A stretch of DNA of 26,750 bases from the IMG/VR virus record IMGVR_UViG_2531839662_000023; one strand, written 5' to 3'. The DNA comes from a virus (taxonomy: Duplodnaviria > Heunggongvirae > Uroviricota > Caudoviricetes). A program made the position numbers and the translations under genes. Positions 1,981 through 18,487 of the stretch are shown here, one piece after another; the stretch's first letter is position 1, and each line of letters begins with the position of its first letter. A model generated the notes under the pieces. It saw nothing but the letters and a program-made list of their open reading frames with translations. It made no database searches and had not been told where the DNA came from.

Positions 1981-2871
1981 TCAGGCTGCCAGATCATTGT
2001 TTCCGATGGAAGCATAATAAGCTTTTTCTGCTTCTGCCGGAGGAGTATGGCCCAGCCTTCCCAGCAATCGTCGATTGTTATACCAGTCCACCCACGTTAG
2101 TGTGGCCAGTTCCACTTCTGCACGGTTTTTCCAGCTCTTACGGTGTATTACCTCCGCTTTGTAAAGACCATTGATGCTCTCAGCCATCGCGTTGTCATAC
2201 GAGTCGCCTGTACTCCCTGTTGATGCCAGTAATCCGGCTTCTTTTAGTCGCTCCGTATAGGCCAGTGACACATACTGAGAGCCTTTATCGCTGTGATGGA
2301 TGGTGCCAGACGGACGACGGGCCCACAACGCCTGCTCCAGCGCATCCAGCACGAATGTCGTTTCCATAGACGATGAGACCCGCCACCCCACGATGTATCC
2401 GGCAAACACATCAATGATGAACGCCACATAGACGAAGCCCCGCCATGTGCTGACGTAAGTAAAATCAGCCACCCACAGCTGGTCAGGTCGTTCTGCCACG
2501 AACTGACGGTTTACGCGGTCGCCTGCGGCAACGGCTTTCCGGCTGATGGTCGTACGGACCTTTTTACCCCGGAGAACACCGGCAAGTCCCATAACCGCCA
2601 TGAGGCGCGCCACTGTACATCTGGCCACCCTGATTCCTTCCCGTAACAACTGACGCCAGACTTTACGCACACCGTACACCTGATGATTTTCATCGTATAC
2701 GCGCTGTATCTCTCTCTTCAGCCAGTCATCGTGCTGCGCACGGGCACTGCGTTTATCCGGATGATGTCGCTGTTGCTGACAATGGTAATACGTTGACGGG
2801 GCAATATGCAGTTCGCTGCATACCGGTCCGACCCCGTACTGCTCACGCAGCTTATCCAGCAGTGGCATCAT
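1981..2871 (-). CDS. IS3-family transposase OrfB (DDE integrase core)
   Basis: 296 aa with an rve-type DDE region (WVADFTYV...HHSDKGSQY...[10 protein letters not shown]). Overlaps orfA by 4 nt, the usual arrangement for programmed frameshifting in this family. Confidence 0.85.
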
Positions 2872-3194
2872 TTTTTCCAGAGGCGGTCGAACTCCGCCTT
2901 CGCAAAATAAGCGGAAGCCTGGCGAAGGATATCGTTACTGCGGCGCAGTTCACGATTTTCACGTTCCAGCTCTTTCAGACGCTGACGTTCAGCGCTGGTG
3001 AGCCCACCATCACCGCCCCCGGTATCCCGCTCATGCTGGCGAACCCAGACACGCAGAGTCTCCGGCGTACAGCCAATCTTTGGGGCAATGGAACAAATTG
3101 CCGCCCACTGTGAGTCATATTCATCCTGACTTTCCAGAACCATACGAATCGCCCGCTGACGGACTTCGGGGGAAAAACGAGTATTTTTAGTCAT
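2868..3194 (-). CDS. IS3-family transposase OrfA (HTH)
   Basis: 108 aa beginning [22 protein letters not shown] with a leucine-zipper-like C-terminus ([27 protein letters not shown]). Recalled as IS629/IS1203-type OrfA. Confidence 0.85.
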
Positions 3195-3268: not shown

Positions 3269-3949
3269 TCATCGCCATTGCTCCCCAAATACAAAACCAA
3301 TTTCAGCCAGTGCCTCGTCCATTTTTTCGATGAACTCCGGCACCATCTCGTCAAAACTCGCCATGTACTTTTCATTCCGCTCAATCACGACATAATGCAG
3401 GCCTTCACGCTTCATGCGCGGGTCATAGTTGGCAAAGTACCAGGCATCTTTTCGCGTCACCCACATGCTGTACTGCACCTGGGCCATGTAAGCCGATTTT
3501 ATTGCCTCGAAACCACCGAGCCGGAATTTCATGAAATCCCGGGAGGTAAACGGGCATTTCAGTTCAAGGCCGTTGCCGTCACTGCATAAACCATCGGGAG
3601 AGCAGGCGGTGCGCATACTTTCGTCGCGATAGATGATCGGGGATTCAGTAATATTCACGCCGGAAGTGAATTCAAACAGGGTTCTGGCGTCGTTCTCGTA
3701 CTGTTTTCCCCAGGCCAGCGCCTTAGCATTAACTTCCGGAGCCACACCGGTGCAAACCTCAGCCAGCAGGGTGTGGAAGTAGGACATTTTCATGTCAGGC
3801 CACTTCTTTCCTGAGCGGGGCTTTGCTATCACGTTGTGAACTTCTGAAGCGGTGATGACGCCGAGCCGTAATTTGTGCCATGCATCATCCCCCTGTTCGA
3901 CAGCTCTCACGTCGATCCCGGTACGCTGCAGGATAATGTCCGGTATCAT
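3269..3949 (-). CDS. exo: Lambda-type 5'-3' exonuclease (Red alpha)
   Basis: 226 aa, near-identical by recall to lambda Exo ([40 protein letters not shown]...GEQWR). Appears intact. Confidence 0.9.
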
Positions 3950-4326
3950 GCTGCCACCTTCTGCTCAGTGGCTTTCTGTTTCAGGAATCCAAGAGCTTTC
4001 ACTGCTTCGGCCTGTGTCAGTTCTGACGATGCGCGAATGTCGCGGCGAAATATCTGGGAACAGAGCGGCAATAAGTCGTCATCCCATGTTTTATCCAGGG
4101 CGATCAGCAGAGTGTTAATCTCCTGCATGGTTTCATCGTTAATGGCTTTTTTGCTGGCCCCGTGGCGTTGCAAATGATCGATGCATAGCGATTCAAACAG
4201 GTGCTGGGGCAGGCCTTTTTCCATGTCGTCTGCCAGTTCTGCCTCTTTCTCTTCACGGGCGATCTGCTGGTAGTAACGCGCCCAGCTCTGAGCCTCAAGA
4301 CGATCCTGAATGTAATAAGCGTTCAT
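3946..4326 (-). pseudogene. In-frame fusion of gam N-terminus to bet C-terminus
   Basis: Residues 1-60 match lambda GamS ([17 protein letters not shown]...[10 protein letters not shown]). Residues 61-126 match the lambda Bet C-terminus ([57 protein letters not shown]). Overlaps the exo start by 4 nt, as bet does in lambda. Confidence 0.7.
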
Positions 4327-4401: not shown

Positions 4402-4692
4402 TTAGCGATTCAGGCCGTTACCGCGTCCGTCGAGAAAAACTTCCACGAGCAAATCACGGGTATAAGTGCGCTCGATGCCGCGATGCAGATAAAGCCGTCC
4501 GCGTAAATTAGCTGATGCAGTCCAGGTACCATCTTTGTGTTTGACCAGCATTCCTGGCATGACCGCACCTCGATTAACGGTCTGCGTTCCGTAATGTTGA
4601 TGAACCATAAAAACTCCTGCCCGTAAGCTGGGCTGCTGAACATATAGAGACTTCTGCGCGTATTCAGGCGGTGGATGGCCGCCGGTTGTCAT
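4402..4692 (-). CDS. Hypothetical protein at the kil/cIII position; start uncertain
   Basis: Open frame ends 76 bp upstream of the gam start. Candidate starts are ATG at 4692 (GAGG about 10 nt upstream) and ATG at 4608 (AGGAG 5 nt upstream). The 136-aa track ORF begins at a TTG. No family recognised. Confidence 0.3.
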
Positions 4693-4885
4693 AACTAAGC
4701 CGCCTCGTTGAAGCGACTGAGGTATAAAGTGTTGTGTTGATTTCAGCTGGTCACACCGACGTTCACGCGTCCGTTTCACCCCTCGCACTCCCCGAAGCCT
4801 GCTGAAATTCAAACTGCGGATCTAAGCGGTCATCGCAACGGTGAAACAGGTGGTTACCGTATCGTTGTGTCGTTGCGATGAATTT

Positions 4886-4940
4886 ATTTAAAACTATAGT
4901 TGTTTTATCGTCAACAACAAAAGTTGTTTTATCGGTTGTT
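4886..4940 (-). promoter_or_regulatory. Candidate early-left promoter/operator (pL/oL-like)
   Basis: Cluster of GTTGTT/AACAAC hexamers (GTTGTT 4899-4904, AACAAC 4913-4918, GTTGTT 4923-4928 and 4935-4940) resembling the half-sites of the OR palindrome at 6430-6454. Minus-strand -35-like TTGTTG and -10-like TATAGT overlap them. Confidence 0.3.
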
Positions 4941-5049
4941 TTAAATATAACTGGTTGTATTTAGGATGGATTTATTTTGTGACTTGCATCGCATAGCGAT
5001 AACTGAAGTGAGGTGTGGTGGTTTTTTGGACGGTATGAGTTATGAGGGG

Positions 5050-5082
5050 GAGGAAAAGAAAACCCGGCGCGGTTGCCGGGTA
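5050..5082 (-). terminator. Rho-independent terminator downstream of the lipoprotein gene
   Basis: GC stem CCCGGC(5063-5068)/GCCGGG(5075-5080), followed on the minus strand by TTTTCTTTTCC, immediately 3' of the stop at 5089. Confidence 0.5.
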
Positions 5083-5088
5083 TGATTA

Positions 5089-5469
5089 TCAGTCAGCCCA
5101 ACCTGATTTCGAGTTTATTTGGGTTTCTGACATTGTGTATTTCTTAATCGTGTCATCGTTAAAAAGAATAGTAAGTTCTTTTTTCGTACCGTTCGTTCCG
5201 TTATGGAATAATCCATAGAATGGAATAAAAGTGGTGCCATTAACTTTTACTTTTGCAAAGGCGTACTTCCAGATCTCCTTTCCACTGTCAGTATATGAAA
5301 CAGCATCAGGAGAACCAAAGTAAGATTTAACCTCATTCTTGGTTGTTTTACCTTCCTGAAGTTTAGACTGGACACTAATTTCAGTTTCATTTTTGAGTTG
5401 CTGGTTGCCTGAAGAAGCACACCCAGCCAATACAGATGCCATCATGGCAGCGATTAGGATTTTTCTCAT
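5089..5469 (-). CDS. Predicted lipoprotein, BamE/SmpA-OmlA-like fold
   Basis: 126 aa with signal peptide and lipobox MRKILIAAMMASVLAG-C. Mature region resembles the BamE fold (KLQEGKTTKNEVKSYFGSPD...WKYAF...LTILFNDD). Sits between cI and the early-left genes, where lambda carries rexAB. Confidence 0.6.
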   Translation of the reverse strand: MRKILIAAMMASVLAGCASSGNQQLKNETEISVQSKLQEGKTTKNEVKSYFGSPDAVSYTDSGKEIWKYAFAKVKVNGTTFIPFYGLFHNGTNGTKKELTILFNDDTIKKYTMSETQINSKSGWAD

Positions 5470-5698
5470 TTTATGTTTCCATTCATTATAATCAGAAACA
5501 TCTTAACATAATGATTCGAAATAAAAACCGCTACGAGATAGGGAGACATTTTGCTGACAGTAGCAACAAATCTCAGCTAACAACGAGAATATTTACTGAA
5601 ATATGCAAACAGATTTGGCGTTCTTATAGAGAATTTAGTGCAATATCTAATCCGAGTGGTATAAACCTTAACCTTCGCTCCCTTAAGTCGTAGATAAA

Positions 5699-6388
5699 TT
5701 AACCATGCTTCCTGTACGTCTGCGGCATGCTTCCAATGACCTTACCGAATATGAACACCCGGTTCATCTCGTCTTTCTCGATCGGGTCCCACGGCGAGTA
5801 GCTCTTGTTATCAGAGATAACCAGCAGCTTATCCTTCATCATTTGAAGACGTTTTACATGGGCAGTGTCGTCGTACAGAAACGCATAGATGCCATCACCG
5901 TCGAAAGATTTAACAGTGATATCAACGAACAGCAGGTCACCTGGTTCGATCGTCCCTGACATGCTGTCACCTCGCACGTTAATGATGCGGATATTTTCCG
6001 CCTTCCTGCCATCGAACATGTGACGAGCATCGTCAAACGAGTACTCAACCGAGCGTAGAACTTCTACAAACTCACGGTTGATTACACCTGGCCCGGCACT
6101 GACTTCTATATCAAGAACGTCAATTTTGAAGTATTTGGAATGGCTGACAGTTGATTGTATTGGTTGCACTGTACTGTCTGACATATTTCCAACGCCAGAA
6201 GATAACCATTCTGCGCGTACACCCAAAGCGTTCGCGATCTCCACGATTTTAGTTGTTTGGTTAGCTTTCCCTGTTTCGATTTTCTGAATAGCAGCCTGGC
6301 TAACCCCGACCAAATCCCCAAGCGCCTTTTGTGTAAGGCCTCGCGCTAATCTGGCTTCTTTAAGTCTTTCTGAGAGTGTTGTTTTCAT
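5699..6388 (-). CDS. cI: CI-type phage repressor (HTH_XRE plus S24 LexA-like peptidase)
   Basis: 229 aa. N-terminal HTH (LTQKALGDLVGVSQAAIQKIETGK) and C-terminal S24 autoproteolysis domain (GDSMSGTIEPGDLLFVD...KRL). Divergent from the cro-like gene. Confidence 0.85.
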   Translation of the reverse strand: MKTTLSERLKEARLARGLTQKALGDLVGVSQAAIQKIETGKANQTTKIVEIANALGVRAEWLSSGVGNMSDSTVQPIQSTVSHSKYFKIDVLDIEVSAGPGVINREFVEVLRSVEYSFDDARHMFDGRKAENIRIINVRGDSMSGTIEPGDLLFVDITVKSFDGDGIYAFLYDDTAHVKRLQMMKDKLLVISDNKSYSPWDPIEKDEMNRVFIFGKVIGSMPQTYRKHG

Positions 6389-6429
6389 AGATCAAATGTA
6401 CAACCAAGGTTTTATTTCATCAAACGAAA

Positions 6430-6454
6430 ATGGTTGTTGACTAAAAACAACCAT
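6430..6454. promoter_or_regulatory. OR operator: 25-bp perfect palindrome overlapping the rightward promoter
   Basis: ATGGTTGTT-gactaaa-AACAACCAT is a perfect inverted repeat. The -35-like TTGACT (6437-6442) lies inside it and a GGAGG RBS precedes cro at 6493. Confidence 0.55.
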
Positions 6455-6492
6455 AGTTTTAATCTTGATTCGGATTAACCACGGAGGTTGTT

Positions 6493-6723
6493 ATGAACCC
6501 AGCAATCAAAACAGCGATCAATATCGTTGGTTCACAAAAGAAACTAGGCGATGCCTGCGAAGTTTCACAGCAGGCCGTCTATAAGTGGCTTCACAACAAA
6601 GCAAAGGTATCCCCTGAACATGTCGGCAGCATTGTTACGGCTACTGGTGGAGTTGTGAAGGCATACCAGATTCGCCCGGATCTTCCGAAGTTGTTTCCAC
6701 ACACCGAAAAGAACGCAGCTTAA
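6493..6723 (+). CDS. Cro-like HTH regulator (YdaS-type)
   Basis: 76-aa ORF transcribed divergently from cI across the operator region, with an HTH-like segment (ACEVSQQAVYKWLHNK). Position and size fit Cro. Confidence 0.7.
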   Translation: MNPAIKTAINIVGSQKKLGDACEVSQQAVYKWLHNKAKVSPEHVGSIVTATGGVVKAYQIRPDLPKLFPHTEKNAA

Positions 6724-6792
6724 ATTTCCATTTCACGCTCTTTAACAATAAGCAATCAACTTAACAGTCAATTCAAACTAAAGGAGTCAATT

Positions 6793-7332
6793 ATGCAACC
6801 ACTTACATACCAACAGACTAGCGGATTTATTCCGACTGCGGTGATAAATCGTTCTCAAACAAAACAAGCTCCAGGCCACGAAAAAATCCGTGATGCCGTC
6901 CGCGCCTGGTCGGCTGTAGATAATCAGGATGTCGTTGCCGCACTCATTGTGAATGAGTATCGGGAGCAGGGCGACGGCACCATCGATTTCCCTGATGATG
7001 TCAGCCGTGCACGCCAGAAGCTGTTCCGCTTCCTCGATAACAAATTCGATTCTGAAAAATACCGAAATAACGTGCGTGAACTGACCCCGGCAATTCTGGC
7101 GGTACTACCGCTGGAATATCGCGGTTACCTGGTTGAGCAGGATAGCTTCATGACTCGGTTGGCTGAAATGGAAAAGGAACTCAGTGAGGCAAAACAGGCT
7201 GTCATTCTCAACGCACCACGCCACCAGAAACTGAAGGAAATGAGTGAAGGTATTGTGTCGATGTTTCGTGTGGACCCGGATCTGGCTGGTCCATTAATGG
7301 CGATGGTGACCACCATGCTGGGGGCAATATGA
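6793..7332 (+). CDS. YdaT-like protein (CII-position regulator)
   Basis: 179 aa immediately downstream of the cro-like gene. The motif LTPAILAVLPLEYR resembles Rac YdaT as recalled. Confidence 0.5.
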   Translation: MQPLTYQQTSGFIPTAVINRSQTKQAPGHEKIRDAVRAWSAVDNQDVVAALIVNEYREQGDGTIDFPDDVSRARQKLFRFLDNKFDSEKYRNNVRELTPAILAVLPLEYRGYLVEQDSFMTRLAEMEKELSEAKQAVILNAPRHQKLKEMSEGIVSMFRVDPDLAGPLMAMVTTMLGAI

Positions 7333-9345: not shown

Positions 9346-9412
9346 TGAAACAGGTGAGTTGAGTTCAAACTGTAGTACAATTCTCTCCAGTTTGAACAGG
9401 AAAGAATATGCT

Positions 9413-9745
9413 ATGAACCCTTATATTTATCTTGGTGGTGCAATACTTGCAGAGGTCATTGGTACAACCTTAATGAAGTTTTCAGAAGGTTTTACACGGT
9501 TATGGCCATCTGTTGGTACAATTATTTGTTATTGTGCATCATTCTGGTTATTAGCTCAGACGCTGGCTTATATTCCTACAGGGATTGCTTATGCTATCTG
9601 GTCAGGAGTCGGTATTGTCCTGATTAGCTTACTGTCATGGGGATTTTTCGGCCAACGGCTGGACCTGCCAGCCATTATAGGCATGATGTTGATTTGTGCC
9701 GGTGTGTTGATTATTAATTTATTGTCACGAAGCACACCACATTAA
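9413..9745 (+). CDS. emrE: Small multidrug resistance efflux transporter EmrE
   Basis: 110 aa from the internal ATG at 9413 (MNPYIYLGGAILAEVIGTTLMKFSEGF...), with four TM segments and the conserved Glu in TM1. The track ORF carries an 18-aa upstream extension. Confidence 0.9.
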   Translation: MNPYIYLGGAILAEVIGTTLMKFSEGFTRLWPSVGTIICYCASFWLLAQTLAYIPTGIAYAIWSGVGIVLISLLSWGFFGQRLDLPAIIGMMLICAGVLIINLLSRSTPH

Positions 9746-9999: not shown

Positions 10000-10569
10000 A
10001 TGAAAAAAGCCATAGCATATATGCGATTTTCATCACCAGGTCAGATGTCTGGCGACTCATTAAACCGACAGAGAAGACTTATTGCTGAATGGTTAAAGGT
10101 AAATAGTGATTATTATCTTGATACCATAACATATGAAGATTTAGGATTAAGTGCATTCAAAGGAAAGCATGCACAATCAGGAGCTTTTTCGGAATTTTTA
10201 GATGCTATAGAGCATGGTTATATATTGCCAGGAACTACATTGTTAGTTGAAAGTCTGGACAGACTTTCAAGAGAAAAAGTCGGTGAAGCGATTGAACGTC
10301 TGAAATTGATTTTGAATCACGGTATTGATGTTATAACTCTTTGCGACAATACAGTCTATAATATTGGCTCTTTGAATGAGCCATATTCATTAATAAAAGC
10401 CATACTTATAGCACAAAGGGCAAATGAAGAAAGCGAGATAAAGTCAAGTCGGGTTAAATTATCATGGAAGAAAAAACGGCAGGATGCACTGGAATCAGGT
10501 ACGATTATGACGGCGTCTTGTCCGAGATGGCTCTCCTTAGATGACAAAAGAACGGCTTTTGTTCCAGAC
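10000..10569 (+). pseudogene. ybcK: Large serine recombinase, N-terminal part, interrupted by IS2
   Basis: Resolvase-type catalytic domain (IAYMRFSSPGQ...LLVESLDRLSRE). Homology stops at the IS2 end (10570). Reading continues in frame after the IS at 11901. Confidence 0.7.
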
Positions 10570-10580
10570 TGGATTTGCCC

Positions 10581-11486
10581 CTATATTTCCAGACATCTGT
10601 TATCACTTAACCCATTACAGGCCCGCTGCCGCAGATATTCCCGTGGCGAGCGATAACCCAGCGCACTATGCGGATGCCATTCGTTATAATGCTCGAACGC
10701 CTCTGCAAGGTTCTTTGCTGCCGTTAACCCGTCTGGTTTGGGCATGATACTGATGTAGTCACGCTTTATCGTTTTCACGAAGCTCTCTGCTATTCCGTTA
10801 CTCTCCGGACTCCGCACCGCCGTGTTCTTCGGTTCAAGTCCCAACATCCGGGCGAACTGGCGTGTTTCATTAGCCCGGTAGCATGAACCATTATCCGTCA
10901 GCCACTCCACTGGAGACGACGGAAGATCGTTGCCGAAGCGGCGTTCCACCGCTCCCAGCATGACGTCCTGTACTGTTTCACTGTTGAAGCCGCCGGTAGT
11001 CACCGCCCAGTGCAGTGCCTCACGATCACAGCAGTCCAGCGCGAACGTGACACGCAGTCTCTCTCCGTTATCACAGCAGAACTCGAACCCGTCAGAGCAC
11101 CATCGCTGATTGCTTTCTTTCACGGCCACTCTGCCTGTATGTGCCCGTTTCGATGGCGGTACAGCAGGTTTTCGCTCAAGCAACAGCGCATTCTGGCGCA
11201 TGATCCGGTAAACACGTTTGGCATTGATCGCAGGCATACCATCAAGTTCTGCCTGTCTGCGAAGCAGCGCCCATACCCGACGATAACCATACGTGGGCAG
11301 CTCTCCGATAACATGGTGTATACGGAGAAGCACATCCGTATCATCAGTGTGACGACTGCGGCGGCCATCCATCCAGTCATCGGTTCGTCTGAGAATGACG
11401 TGCAACTGCGCACGCGACACCCGGAGACAACGGCTGACTAAGCTTACTCCCCATCCCCGGGCAATAAGGGCGCGTGCGCTATCCAC
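10581..11486 (-). CDS. insD: IS2 transposase InsD (OrfB)
   Basis: 301 aa ([30 protein letters not shown]...), recalled as IS2 InsD. Confidence 0.9.
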
Positions 11487-11809
11487 TTTTTTGCCCGTCC
11501 ATATTCAACGGCTTCTTTGAGGAGTTCATTTTCCATCGTTTTCTTGCCGAGCAGGCGCTGGAGTTCTTTAATCTGCTTCATGGCGGCAGCAAGTTCAGAG
11601 GCAGGAACAACCTGTTCTCCGGCGGCGACAGCAGTAAGACTTCCTTCCTGGTATTGCTTACGCCAGAGAAATAACTGGCTGGCTGCTACACCATGTTGCC
11701 GGGCAACGAGGGAGACCGTCATCCCCGGTTCAAAGCTCTGCTGAACAATTGCGATCTTTTCCTGTGTGGTACGCCGTCTGCGTTTCTCCGGCCCTAAGAC
11801 ATCAATCAT
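11444..11809 (-). CDS. insC: IS2 transposase InsC (OrfA)
   Basis: 121 aa from the internal ATG ([40 protein letters not shown]...), recalled as IS2 InsC. The track ORF has a 15-aa extension. Confidence 0.9.
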
Positions 11810-11900
11810 CTGTTCTCCAATGACTAGTCTAAAAACTAGTATTAAGACTATCACTTATTTAAGTGATACTGGTTGTCTGGAGATTCAGGGGGCCAGTCTA

Positions 11901-12862
11901 CAGACCCCGACAGGGTGAAAACTATTGAGCTAATTTTTAAACTCAGGATGGAAAGGCGCTCATTGAATGCAATAGCCAAGTATTTAAATGATCATGCTGT
12001 AAAGAATTTCTCAGGAAAAGAAAGTGCATGGGGACCTTCTGTAATTGAAAAATTATTAGCGAATAAAGCTCTGATAGGTATTTGCGTACCTTCATATCGT
12101 GCAAGAGGGAAAGGGATAAGTGAAATCGCTGGCTATTATCCCAGAGTCATATCAGATGATTTGTTTTACGCTGTACAGGAAATTCGGTTGGCACCTTTTG
12201 GTATTAGCAATAGTAGCAAGAATCCTATGCTAATAAATCTACTTCGAACAGTTATGAAGTGTGAGGCTTGTGGTAATACCATGATTGTTCATGCGGTATC
12301 TGGAAGTTTGCATGGCTATTATGTTTGTCCGATGAGAAGATTACATCGATGTGACAGGCCATCAATAAAAAGAGATTTGGTTGATTATAATATCATTAAT
12401 GAATTGCTTTTTAATTGTAGCAAAATTCAACCAGTTGAAAACAAGAAAGATGCTAATGAAACTTTAGAGTTAAAAATTATTGAGCTTCAGATGAAAATTA
12501 ATAATTTAATCGTTGCATTGTCTGTCGCGCCTGAAGTTACCGCTATAGCAGAGAAAATAAGACTATTAGATAAGGAATTACGAAGGGCTTCGGTATCATT
12601 GAAAACTTTGAAGAGTAAAGGTGTAAATTCATTCAGTGATTTTTATGCTATTGACTTAACCAGTAAAAATGGACGAGAGTTATGCCGTACACTTGCCTAT
12701 AAAACATTCGAAAAAATCATAATTAATACGGATAATAAAACCTGTGATATCTATTTTATGAATGGCATTGTTTTTAAACACTATCCTTTAATGAAAGTAA
12801 TATCCGCCCAGCAGGCGATAAGTGCTCTCAAATATATGGTTGATGGTGAGATTTATTTCTAA
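11901..12862 (+). pseudogene. ybcK: Large serine recombinase, C-terminal part
   Basis: Recombinase and zinc-ribbon region (CEACGNTMIVHAVSG...YYVCPMRR) plus coiled coil. Removing the IS and one CAGAC copy restores ...[17 protein letters not shown]... in frame. Confidence 0.7.
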
Positions 12863-16962: not shown

Positions 16963-18060
16963 TTAGAACTGGTAAACCAGACCTACAGCAACGATGTCAT
17001 CAGTGCTTACACCGAGTGCTTTAGTGAAGTCATTTTTGTCAAGCAGGTTGATTTTGTAATCAACGAAAGTAGACATATTTTTGTTGAAGTAATAGGTTGC
17101 ACCTACATCAACATATTTGACTAAGTCCTGATCGCCCCATACTCCAAGATCCTTACCTTTAGATTGCAGGTAAGCAACGGACGGACGCAGACCGAAATCG
17201 AACTGATATTGTGCAACAGCTTCGAAGTTTTGGGCTTTATTAGCAACGAAGTGATCAGCAAATACAGTCATATTCTGGGTTTCAGAATAGGTAGTGGCCA
17301 GGTAAATGTTGTTAGCGTCATATTTCAGACCTGCGGCCCAAACTTCTGCATTTTTACCGGAAGCAAATACTTCAGGAAGAACTTTCCCTGCATTAACTTG
17401 AGTGTCGGTACGATCAGATTTCGCATAAGTTGCACCGATACCGAATCCTTCGTATTCATAGGTAGCAGAGAAACCGAAGCCATCACCGTTACCTTCAGTG
17501 TAGTTATCGAAATCGCTACGATCGTTTTTGCCTTGGTACTGAGCAGCAAAGTTCAGACCATCAACCAGACCAAAGAAGTCGTTGTTACGATAGGTTGCAA
17601 CACCAGTTGCACGTTGAGTCATGAACACGTCGGTTTGAGTCCAAGTGTCACCACCGAATTCTGGCAGGACGTCAGTCCACGCACCGATGTCGTATGCTAC
17701 ACCGTAGTTACGGCCGTAATCGATGGAGCCGTAGTCACCGAATTTCAGGCCAGCGAAGGCAAGACGGGTTTTATCTTTGGAGGAACCTTGAGATTCAGCG
17801 CGGTTGCCTTTGAATTCATATTCCCACTGACCGAAACCAGTCAGTTGATCGTTGATTTGGGTTTCACCTTTGAAGCCAAGATGGGCATAAGTAGTATCAC
17901 CATCATCTGCATCATTAGAGGAGAAGTAGTGCTTAGCATTAACTTTCCCGTACAGATCCAGCTTGTTACTGTCTTTATTATAAATTTCAGCTGCCTGAGC
18001 AGACATCGCCATCAGTACTGATGCAGCTACAGCAGAAATTGCCACTGTTAATTTTTTCAT
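16963..18060 (-). CDS. nmpC: General porin, OmpC/OmpF/PhoE family (NmpC-like), intact
   Basis: 365 aa from [30 protein letters not shown]..., with signal peptide and a C-terminal beta-strand ending in F (VGLVYQF). The track ORF adds 20 aa upstream. Confidence 0.85.
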
Positions 18061-18487
18061 CGTGAGCCCTTTTTTTGAACTATTATTAAAAAATGATGTC
18101 ACTGCGCGATAAATATTCATCTAATCAATGTGATTATTTCAAGATGTAAGTTTTGGTTTCTCGTTTGATTTGTGAAGTAGATCTCTATTTTTATCTGAAC
18201 TTTTTTCTATCGAATCCTATTCATGGCTCTTGGCTGAATAAAAATAAATCTATTAGCCAATTTATATTAACGGCTGTTATTTATAAGCGCTCTATAATTT
18301 GAAGGTTCAATTTAAACCGGCTAAAAATAACACTGGAAATTATTTTTTGGTTATTTGTTGAGATTTGCTTATGTATTTGTAGTGGTGTTTTCAATACTCG
18401 GTAGCATTCTCTCAAATATCATTTAGTGGTTTACGTACGTAAAAAATTGGTTATGCTGTTAAGAGTGGTTACTTCGTCACACAGCTT

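Follow-up and report, generated by a model that had tools for sequence, protein, structure and literature searches.

Why does a temperate phage keep a small lipoprotein gene beside its repressor, in the position that rexAB occupies in lambda? The question arises from a stretch of 26,750 nucleotides (hereafter the window) that is a lambda-like E. coli prophage, with the integrase gene at its left end followed by exo, kil, cI, cro and the O/P replication, lysis and terminase genes. The original prediction for this locus had put forward an "exclusion or conversion" role, a proposal drawn from genomic context only. The protein family as such has been listed before (phrog_3135, SEN1984 family), and others have noted its BamE-like fold. 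The present analysis adds the anatomy of the cassette with its conserved promoter motif, two likely modes of expression, the recurrent use of two slots, a family-specific insertion, the strength of selection and a natural control phage. What emerges is an accessory gene that is widespread in prophages, very strongly conserved and found in two positions where temperate phages keep lysogen-expressed exclusion genes.

The lipoprotein gene lies in the immunity region

Around the lipoprotein locus the window is 99.4% identical to Escherichia phage PhiR26_1 (PV340555.1), whose copy of the gene, annotated 'hypothetical protein / putative lipoprotein', is flanked by cI and Kil. The features of the window that bear on the gene are collected in Table 1. 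The segment first assigned to the lipoprotein, 5089-5698, is gene only as far as 5469; the remainder (5470-5698) is a non-coding stretch of 229 nt between cI and the gene, and it holds the promoter motif described below. A porin gene elsewhere in the window is another envelope moron of the same prophage, and PhiR26_1 also carries the envelope morons Lom and omptin.

Table 1. Features of the lipoprotein locus and its borders, listed in the direction of transcription of the gene (positions in the window)
Feature	Position	Strand	Basis and remarks
cI-type repressor (HTH_3 + Peptidase_S24)	5699-6388	minus	Pfam; annotated cI in PhiR26_1; same-strand upstream neighbour of the lipoprotein gene
Spacer, cI stop codon to cassette promoter	5509-5698	minus	Without functional terminator; hairpin eroded
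Candidate extended -10 promoter TGTTAAGAT (TGn + TAAGAT)	5500-5508	minus	39 nt 5' of ATG; conserved in upstream alignment
Shine-Dalgarno-like GGAAA	5476-5480	minus	6-10 nt 5' of ATG; read from sequence
Lipoprotein gene	5089-5469	minus	ATG start, 126 codons + stop (5089-5091); SEN1984-family / phrog_3135, BamE-like fold
Signal peptide, residues 1-16, and lipobox Cys17 (codon 5421-5419)	5419-5469	minus	Read from sequence
Insertion, codons 78-91 (NGTTFIPFYGLFHN)	5197-5238	minus	14-residue BamE gap in hhalign, between β2 and β3
Cassette intrinsic terminator: stem-loop 5081-5062, then T-run	5052-5081	minus	Folding energy
OL operator repeats and candidate PL	4886-4964	minus	19-nt shared repeat, two direct repeats; far edge of cargo slot

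The borders of the slot are given by operator-like repeats that are common to the cI-cro spacer (6400-6462; cro, at 6493, is divergent from cI) and the segment 4888-4964. A 19-nt sequence at 6444-6462 recurs inverted at 4888-4906 with 95% complementarity, and further repeats are located at 4892-4934. Hexamers read from the sequence at 4914-4886 (TTGACG, 17 nt, TTAAAT) suggest a candidate PL. The repeats place OL/PL just past the terminator of the lipoprotein gene, and the gene therefore lies inside the immunity region, between cI and OL/PL. The interval between the repressor and N is a common moron site (PMC7067206). In PhiR34_1 this slot is empty, with cI followed directly by the operator region, and in PhiR5_1 it holds a HipA-like kinase pair instead; the content of the slot varies within this phage group. 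Where the window is compared with phages of other immunity types, including these two, homology stops at ~5080-5082, at the stem of the terminator.

Anatomy of the cassette

Our analysis strongly supports an autonomous moron cassette of ~460 bp (5508-5052), inserted between cI and OL/PL and consisting of a candidate extended -10 promoter, a ribosome-binding site, the 126-codon gene and a strong terminator. Across the cassette the GC content is 35-38%, compared to ~50% in the flanks. Several features expected of a moron are observed: a terminator of its own, a composition unlike that of the flanks, and presence or absence between otherwise similar phages.

A standard sigma-70 scan of the spacer returned no minus-strand promoter. 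We aligned the upstream regions of relatives from unrelated contexts, and this alignment revealed the motif TGnTA[AGC][AGC]AT at positions -37 to -48 in 34 of 56 distinct upstream sequences and the hexamer by itself in six more; by chance, 0.001 would be expected per 12-nt window. The motif is present in repressor-linked and tail-module contexts alike, and its distance from the gene is fixed. TGTTAAGAT is a putative promoter of the cassette, with transcription predicted to start near 5493 on the minus strand. A TATAAT sequence at 5490-5485 was dismissed as a promoter, as it lacks conservation and leaves just 15 nt to the ATG. An equivalent of the Shine-Dalgarno-like element, GGA or GGAAA, is likewise conserved in the upstream alignment of the relatives.

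The 3' end of the cassette is defined by a stem of 7 bp, six of them G-C pairs, with a folding energy of -14.1 kcal/mol (z = -3.6) that none of 200 shuffled sequences matched in stability. A strong hairpin follows the stop codon in most related loci as well. With this hairpin, an intact open reading frame, a lipobox and operators on both sides, the original prediction of a 126-residue lipoprotein with its own terminator in the cargo slot next to cI is borne out.

No minus-strand terminator was found within 5470-5698, where the hairpin of the window is weak (-2.4 kcal/mol, z = 0.0). At the same place, relatives have a G+C-rich hairpin followed by a T-run (-12 to -16 kcal/mol), and because this element stands just 5' of the promoter motif, the cassette is insulated from the preceding gene in many of them. 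Since the window has no terminator between cI and the gene, read-through from PRM is possible there, and both the cassette promoter and PRM read-through could drive the gene. In 13 distinct variants the promoter block is missing, and the gene begins 51 nt after the cI stop codon with no terminator in between. With both the promoter motif and a terminator absent, cI and the gene must share a transcript in these cI-fused variants. These fusions into one operon are probably the best indirect pointer available that the protein is wanted in the lysogen. The arrangements would fit two alternative modes of expression, one from the gene's own promoter and the other by fusion behind cI.

A lipoprotein under very strong purifying selection

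The N-terminus of the protein reads MRKILIAAMMASVLAG followed by C. It has the elements of a lipoprotein signal, with a basic MRK, a hydrophobic core and a lipobox L-A-G-C in which LAG precedes Cys17; Ala is at position +2 and Ser at +3. The lipobox cysteine is invariant across 65 diverse family members, and the mature protein comprises 110 residues. Sorting of lipoproteins is governed by the '+2 Asp' retention rule, under which Ala at +2 predicts the outer membrane. The Ala after the cysteine therefore predicts sorting of the window protein to the outer membrane.

The match to phrog_3135 spans the full length (E = 7.7e-48, residues 1-124 on profile positions 1-114 of 114). An indexed search returned 227 homologues, and 1339 representative clusters were matched at E<=1e-3. 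The open reading frame is a real gene; a chance reading frame or a decayed remnant is ruled out by a dN/dS of 0.02 and by the hundreds of full-length homologues.

We calculated dN/dS from 63 distinct close gene sequences. The mature part yields a value of 0.023 at a dS of ~1.5, at which synonymous sites are saturated, and the signal peptide, with a value of 0.27, changes roughly tenfold faster. Purifying selection on the mature protein is very strong, and the low dN/dS at this dS implies a conserved partner.

A BamE-like fold with a family-specific insertion

The only meaningful domain match is to Pfam BamE (PF04355), and it falls below the gathering score (21.5 vs 23.2 bits, E = 2e-4); the other Pfam matches at E<=1 are two DUFs and LPAM_1. 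No model of NCBIfam release 20.0, which does not contain an SEN1984 model, reaches its cut-off, and no BamE model is matched there at E<=1. Pfam BamE is matched at E<0.01 by 53 of 65 diverse relatives. When the family profile was compared with the PDB, E. coli BamE was returned at E = 0.02, and hhalign gave an alignment of the family with BamE over 93 columns with a probability of 92.3% (E = 5.5e-7), leaving the segment N-terminal to helix 1 unaligned with that of BamE.

Two AlphaFold2 (AF2) models were calculated. The first, of the full-length protein with a shallow alignment, had a pLDDT of 66, and a Foldseek search of the PDB with this model gave only weak hits, with BamE at E = 0.1-0.4. 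The second, of the mature protein with a more diverse alignment, had a pLDDT of 79 and a pTM of 0.69, and its topology is helix-helix-strand-strand-strand-strand. A search of BFVD returned only uncharacterised SmpA/OmlA phage lipoproteins. The BamE/SmpA-OmlA-like fold that had been proposed from the sequence is thus confirmed by the profile and structure comparisons: the mature protein has a BamE-like ααβββ (SmpA/OmlA) fold.

The protein shares with BamE this fold and a lipoprotein signal with its lipobox cysteine, but differs from it by the sub-threshold score, the N-terminal segment, a 14-residue insertion between β2 and β3, an invariant C-terminal GWAD, and its location on a mobile cassette. 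The gene lies on a prophage cassette, carried by 78 of 5426 complete E. coli genomes, and not at the chromosomal bamE position. A true BamE orthologue is ruled out by the missed curated cut-offs, the insertion, the GWAD and the mobility of the phage gene. Most RefSeq copies are named 'outer membrane protein assembly factor BamE', an older automatic PGAP name that overstates what is known; the latest RefSeq name, 'SEN1984 family lipoprotein', is that of WP_001226568.1, an E. coli protein 99% identical to the one in the window. SEN1984 itself, an uncharacterised lipoprotein, is encoded in the ROD21 island of Salmonella Enteritidis (PMC10655114, PMC3198454) and has already been predicted to be BamE-like by Phyre2 (PMC10655114). 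It sits in an excisable pathogenicity island, whereas the window gene is in a phage immunity region.

The insertion, which contains FIPFYGLFHNG, is absent from BamE. It is the most conserved stretch of the protein, near-invariant in family alignments and with a dN/dS of 0.013, and residues 78-90 form a low-confidence loop in both AF2 models. We consider the insertion the likeliest contact surface of the protein.

Relatives occupy two lysogeny-linked slots

Among 80 IMG/VR loci with copies 77-100% identical to the window gene, 55 are located behind a repressor gene, with at least 10 repressor types represented. Another 21 belong to the tail module, where they usually stand immediately before the tape-measure gene and often adjoin arc/antirepressor genes and other small secreted proteins; three are beside arc or gtrB-like genes, and one was not placed. 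Copies that are 77-85% identical are found in both lysogeny-linked slots, behind the repressor gene and upstream of the tape-measure gene. That close copies move between these two cargo slots of Enterobacteriaceae temperate phages is strongly supported by this distribution.

In Citrobacter and Enterobacter prophages, the gene (76% identical) follows the repressor gene on the same strand, in some cases after one or two others, and the replication and recombination modules vary by phage. Salmonella phage S107 has the same repressor-linked layout. More distant homologues stand immediately before the tape-measure gene in Klebsiella phage RAH1, Serratia prophages and Pseudomonas phage U7, and that of Alteromonas phage P24 is part of the head-tail module, with ~1.7 kb between it and the tape-measure gene downstream. 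The phages that carry relatives have quite different tails.

Relatives with 40-69% identity to a chromosomal branch are present in Burkholderiales, Nitrospirae, Verrucomicrobia and others. These distant genes stand alone among unrelated housekeeping genes, with essentially no phage signal and no conserved neighbour: the 132 neighbours fall into 97 different Pfam families, none of which occurs more than six times. As the chromosomal relatives have no phage neighbours, the ancestral function would be cellular and not anti-phage. The data strongly support a large family of small cellular lipoproteins, one branch of which was captured by temperate phages of Enterobacterales and some other groups.

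A tentative role in the exclusion of other phages

The best explanation for these data, to which we assign a probability of roughly 40%, is that the gene encodes an envelope lipoprotein that is expressed in the lysogen, binds a conserved host component and excludes other phages. Lysogens would produce the protein from the cassette promoter as well as by PRM read-through, as suggested by the cI fusions, the promoter motif and the absence of an upstream terminator. After lipidation it would reach the inner leaflet of the outer membrane and face the periplasm. There the BamE/BLIP-type binding domain, probably through its insertion loop, would bind a host envelope component conserved across Enterobacteriaceae; a conserved target is suggested by the very low dN/dS together with the occurrence of the same protein in phages of many genera. 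The pay-off would be protection of the lysogen from other incoming phages, either at adsorption or during passage of the genome through the envelope. Exclusion would be heterotypic, as for other cargo of these slots, and would not be a block of the phage's own receptor.

The benefit assumed in this scheme derives from priors, namely the known phage outer-membrane lipoproteins and the cargo of both slots. Of the phage-borne outer-membrane lipoproteins whose function is known, most (such as Llp and Cor) serve exclusion, and the cargo of the two slots is mostly exclusion or defence genes, such as RexAB, HK022 Nun, 933W Stk, BTP1 BstA and HK97 gp15. The gp15 exclusion moron of HK97 sits in the tape-measure-proximal slot, and sieA of P22 in an immI-adjacent position; each is a moron of a single gene that the prophage expresses. 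Which phages the mEpimmI Lpp lipoproteins exclude depends on receptor type (PMC11893012).

RexAB, Nun, Stk and BstA share with the window gene its place and strand in the immunity region, 3' of the repressor, but they are proteins of the cytoplasm or inner membrane whose action follows DNA entry, and they are unrelated to it in sequence, whereas the window protein is a predicted exported outer-membrane lipoprotein with its own candidate promoter. Relatives of the lipoprotein also occupy the slots of HK97 gp15, between the tail chaperone and tape-measure genes, and of P22 SieA, beside immI, often next to arc/ant. Both gp15 and SieA are, however, inner-membrane proteins with no sequence or fold relation to the lipoprotein.

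The statement in the original prediction that no function can be assigned from sequence still stands. The PADLOC defence-protein models returned no family at E<=1, and a known anti-phage defence system was dismissed on this basis; in the literature, no functional study of the lipoprotein or of the SEN1984 family was found.

Several observations weigh against exclusion. The ancestry of the family is cellular and not anti-phage; extreme conservation without diversification is unusual for arms-race genes; the cargo slots also carry non-defence morons; and the presence of SEN1984 in a pathogenicity island fits a host-fitness role equally well. The locus nevertheless offers a clean experimental target, with a cassette of ~460 bp, a cultivable carrier (PhiR26_1) and a control with the same tail tip and an empty slot (PhiR34_1). 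Either outcome would show what phages took up a BamE-type lipoprotein for: exclusion, envelope fitness or tampering with BAM.

Alternative functions

The main rival is a host-fitness conversion factor, which would strengthen or modify the envelope (stress, osmotic or serum resistance, colonisation) in the manner of lambda Bor or OsmE, with no direct effect on phages. We regard it as somewhat unlikely. In its favour, the wider family is cellular, chromosomal in many phyla and without phage neighbours, SEN1984 is part of the ROD21 island, and purifying selection of the observed strength is typical of a housekeeping-like interaction. The OsmE-like fold and the company of other envelope morons in the same prophage (the porin in the window, Lom and omptin in PhiR26_1) point in the same direction. 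However, the protein has no sequence relation to Bor (no Bor was found among the Pfam matches at E<=1), no phenotype has been reported for SEN1984 itself in the literature found, and the repressor- and tape-measure-proximal slots are best known for exclusion cargo.

The homology to BamE suggests a different target. BamE binds BamA POTRA5 and BamD and supports the assembly of outer-membrane proteins, and a phage-borne mimic might dock on BamA/BamD in place of, or beside, host BamE and alter either this assembly or the surface of BamA. Such a mimic is in our estimation improbable, and so are the effects that one might expect of it, for example a lower display of receptors or a block of BamA-dependent phages or toxins. 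BamA is indeed the receptor of short-tailed Stx phages and of CdiA-EC93, the homology is detectable by profile (E = 5.5e-7 in hhalign), and PGAP long named the protein 'BamE'. These points have to be set against the Pfam score below the gathering threshold, the lack of a match to any NCBIfam BamE model, the unaligned segment before helix 1 and the 14-residue insertion that sets the family apart, and also against the fact that the same fold serves unrelated binders (BLIP, BtiO, OsmE). In a more specific version, a BamE paralogue would dock on BAM via the shared core, and the FIPFYGLFHNG insertion would re-shape BamA/BamD and change the displayed outer-membrane proteins or epitopes, such that the lysogen resists BamA- or porin-dependent phages and toxins. 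We consider this version highly improbable; if true, docking on BAM would represent a novel means by which a prophage manipulates an essential machine.

Little weight is also given to a periplasmic inhibitor or immunity protein, comparable to BLIP or to the Bacteroides T6SS immunity protein BtiO, that would neutralise an enzyme attacking from the periplasm. Its target might be a peptidoglycan hydrolase associated with phage tails, a colicin or an effector of a T6SS. The gene often adjoins the tape-measure gene, and the conserved exposed loop could plug an active site. The tape-measure-proximal position is, however, a general moron hotspot, the likeness to BLIP-like inhibitors, BtiO and OsmE is at the level of the fold only (11-19% identity), and no cognate toxin, effector or other linked partner gene was found in any cassette context examined.

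Homotypic exclusion of the Cor/Llp type, in which the protein would bind the outer-membrane receptor that its phage uses and prevent further adsorption or injection of DNA, had been suggested in the original prediction and is not favoured by our data; we judge it very unlikely. Cor (phi80, N15, HK022), Llp (T5) and the mEpimmI Lpp act on outer-membrane proteins from the periplasmic face, and they are small phage-encoded outer-membrane lipoproteins, as the window protein is predicted to be. For the mEpimmI Lpp, exclusion by receptor type has been described (PMC11893012). Membership of the Cor, Llp or Bor families was dismissed, as PHROG and Pfam gave no significant family match: phrog_1119 (Cor) is reached only at E = 0.064 and over residues 1-47, the signal peptide region, which does not indicate homology, and the Llp family is not among the PHROG matches. 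The genes for Cor, Llp and the mEpimmI Lpp are beside receptor-binding genes and their products block the phage's own receptor, whereas the window gene is linked to regulators or to the tape-measure gene and occurs with and without the same J type. PhiR34_1 has no copy of the gene, yet its J is 90% identical overall and near-identical in the last ~170 residues, and copies that are 77-85% identical are carried by phages with different tail modules and also lie beside a tailspike-like gene.

Gene neighbourhoods of the lipoprotein relatives

Behind repressor genes, most relatives of the lipoprotein are accompanied by a small conserved gene that lies just past the lipoprotein gene's terminator and is convergent to it. 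Its product, of 68-80 aa, belongs to no Pfam family, and the gene is also present in many IMG/VR loci; it is absent from the window and from PhiR26_1. In the sister phage PhiR5_1, the slot between cI and OL holds a gene pair annotated as HipA toxin and 'HipD antitoxin', a candidate for kinase-based abortive-infection cargo.

In the slot upstream of the tape-measure gene, the lipoprotein gene often has small neighbours whose products also carry a signal peptide or a lipobox (for example MKKTLACLSLILFISGC...), and these groups make up small clusters of uncharacterised exported proteins. A GtrB-like glucosyltransferase (O-antigen conversion) cluster has one relative directly upstream of it, and another relative is convergent to a 738-aa ORF that we take, judging by its N-terminal sequence alone, to be a putative tailspike. 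These two settings are additional lysogenic-conversion neighbourhoods.

Near-identical copies of the lipoprotein gene (at least 99% DNA identity) in E. coli RefSeq records bear three different annotations, namely 'hypothetical protein', 'outer membrane protein assembly factor BamE' and 'SEN1984 family lipoprotein'. Judged by the curated cut-offs, the name BamE is unwarranted.

Other accessory genes and rearrangements of the prophage

Two more accessory genes of the window encode membrane proteins, a full-length Gram-negative porin, named 'OmpD' in records of related phages, and an EmrE-like small multidrug-resistance protein. An IS3-family element lies between the integrase end of the prophage and exo, a position at which PhiR26_1 carries none, and a second IS appears to split a serine recombinase gene (10000-12862). 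This second cargo region, too, differs between the window and PhiR26_1, which carries the defence gene PD-lambda-1 downstream of ren.

A 126-aa fusion ORF takes its N-terminal ~64-71 residues from Gam (Pfam match, residues 1-64) and its C-terminal ~60-65 from Bet (PHROG Bet/RecT-like matches, about 62-126). Both genes are intact at this site in PhiR26_1 (gam 297 nt, bet 786 nt), so most of the Red module has been deleted from the window prophage. Between the candidate PL and kil, an N-like antiterminator gene is neither annotated nor evident. Kil itself lies inside a 136-codon ORF with a TTG start (PHROG match, residues 60-135), the N-terminal extension of which is arginine-rich (RGVKRTRERRCDQLK); RefSeq annotates only the KilR-like part, of 68 aa.

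Coordinates of the features in the window and in related loci (L-numbers, own coordinates)
Feature	Locus	Position	Strand	Domain
IS3-family element	window	1981-3194	minus	
orfB	window	1981-2871	minus	rve
orfA	window	2868-3194	minus	HTH_Tnp_1
Gam-Bet fusion	window	3946-4326	minus	
Region with the Kil-containing ORF	window	4402-4888	minus	
EmrE-like protein	window	9359-9745	plus	
Split recombinase, part	window	10000-10656		Resolvase N-terminal
Second IS transposase	window	10581-11486	minus	rve
Split recombinase, part	window	11873-12862		Recombinase, Zn-ribbon
Porin	window	16963-18120	minus	Porin_1, E 2e-156
Convergent small gene	L005	6413-6619	opposite to lipoprotein gene	
Convergent small gene	L010	6510-6722	opposite to lipoprotein gene	
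Convergent small gene	L002	4423-4650	opposite to lipoprotein gene	
PhiR5_1 slot, HipA/'HipD'	L178	3305-4878		
Exported-protein companions	L054	6410-6787		
Exported-protein companions	L090, L100	about 6355-7300		
GtrB-like cluster	L047	3211-4137		
738-aa ORF	L091	4473-6689
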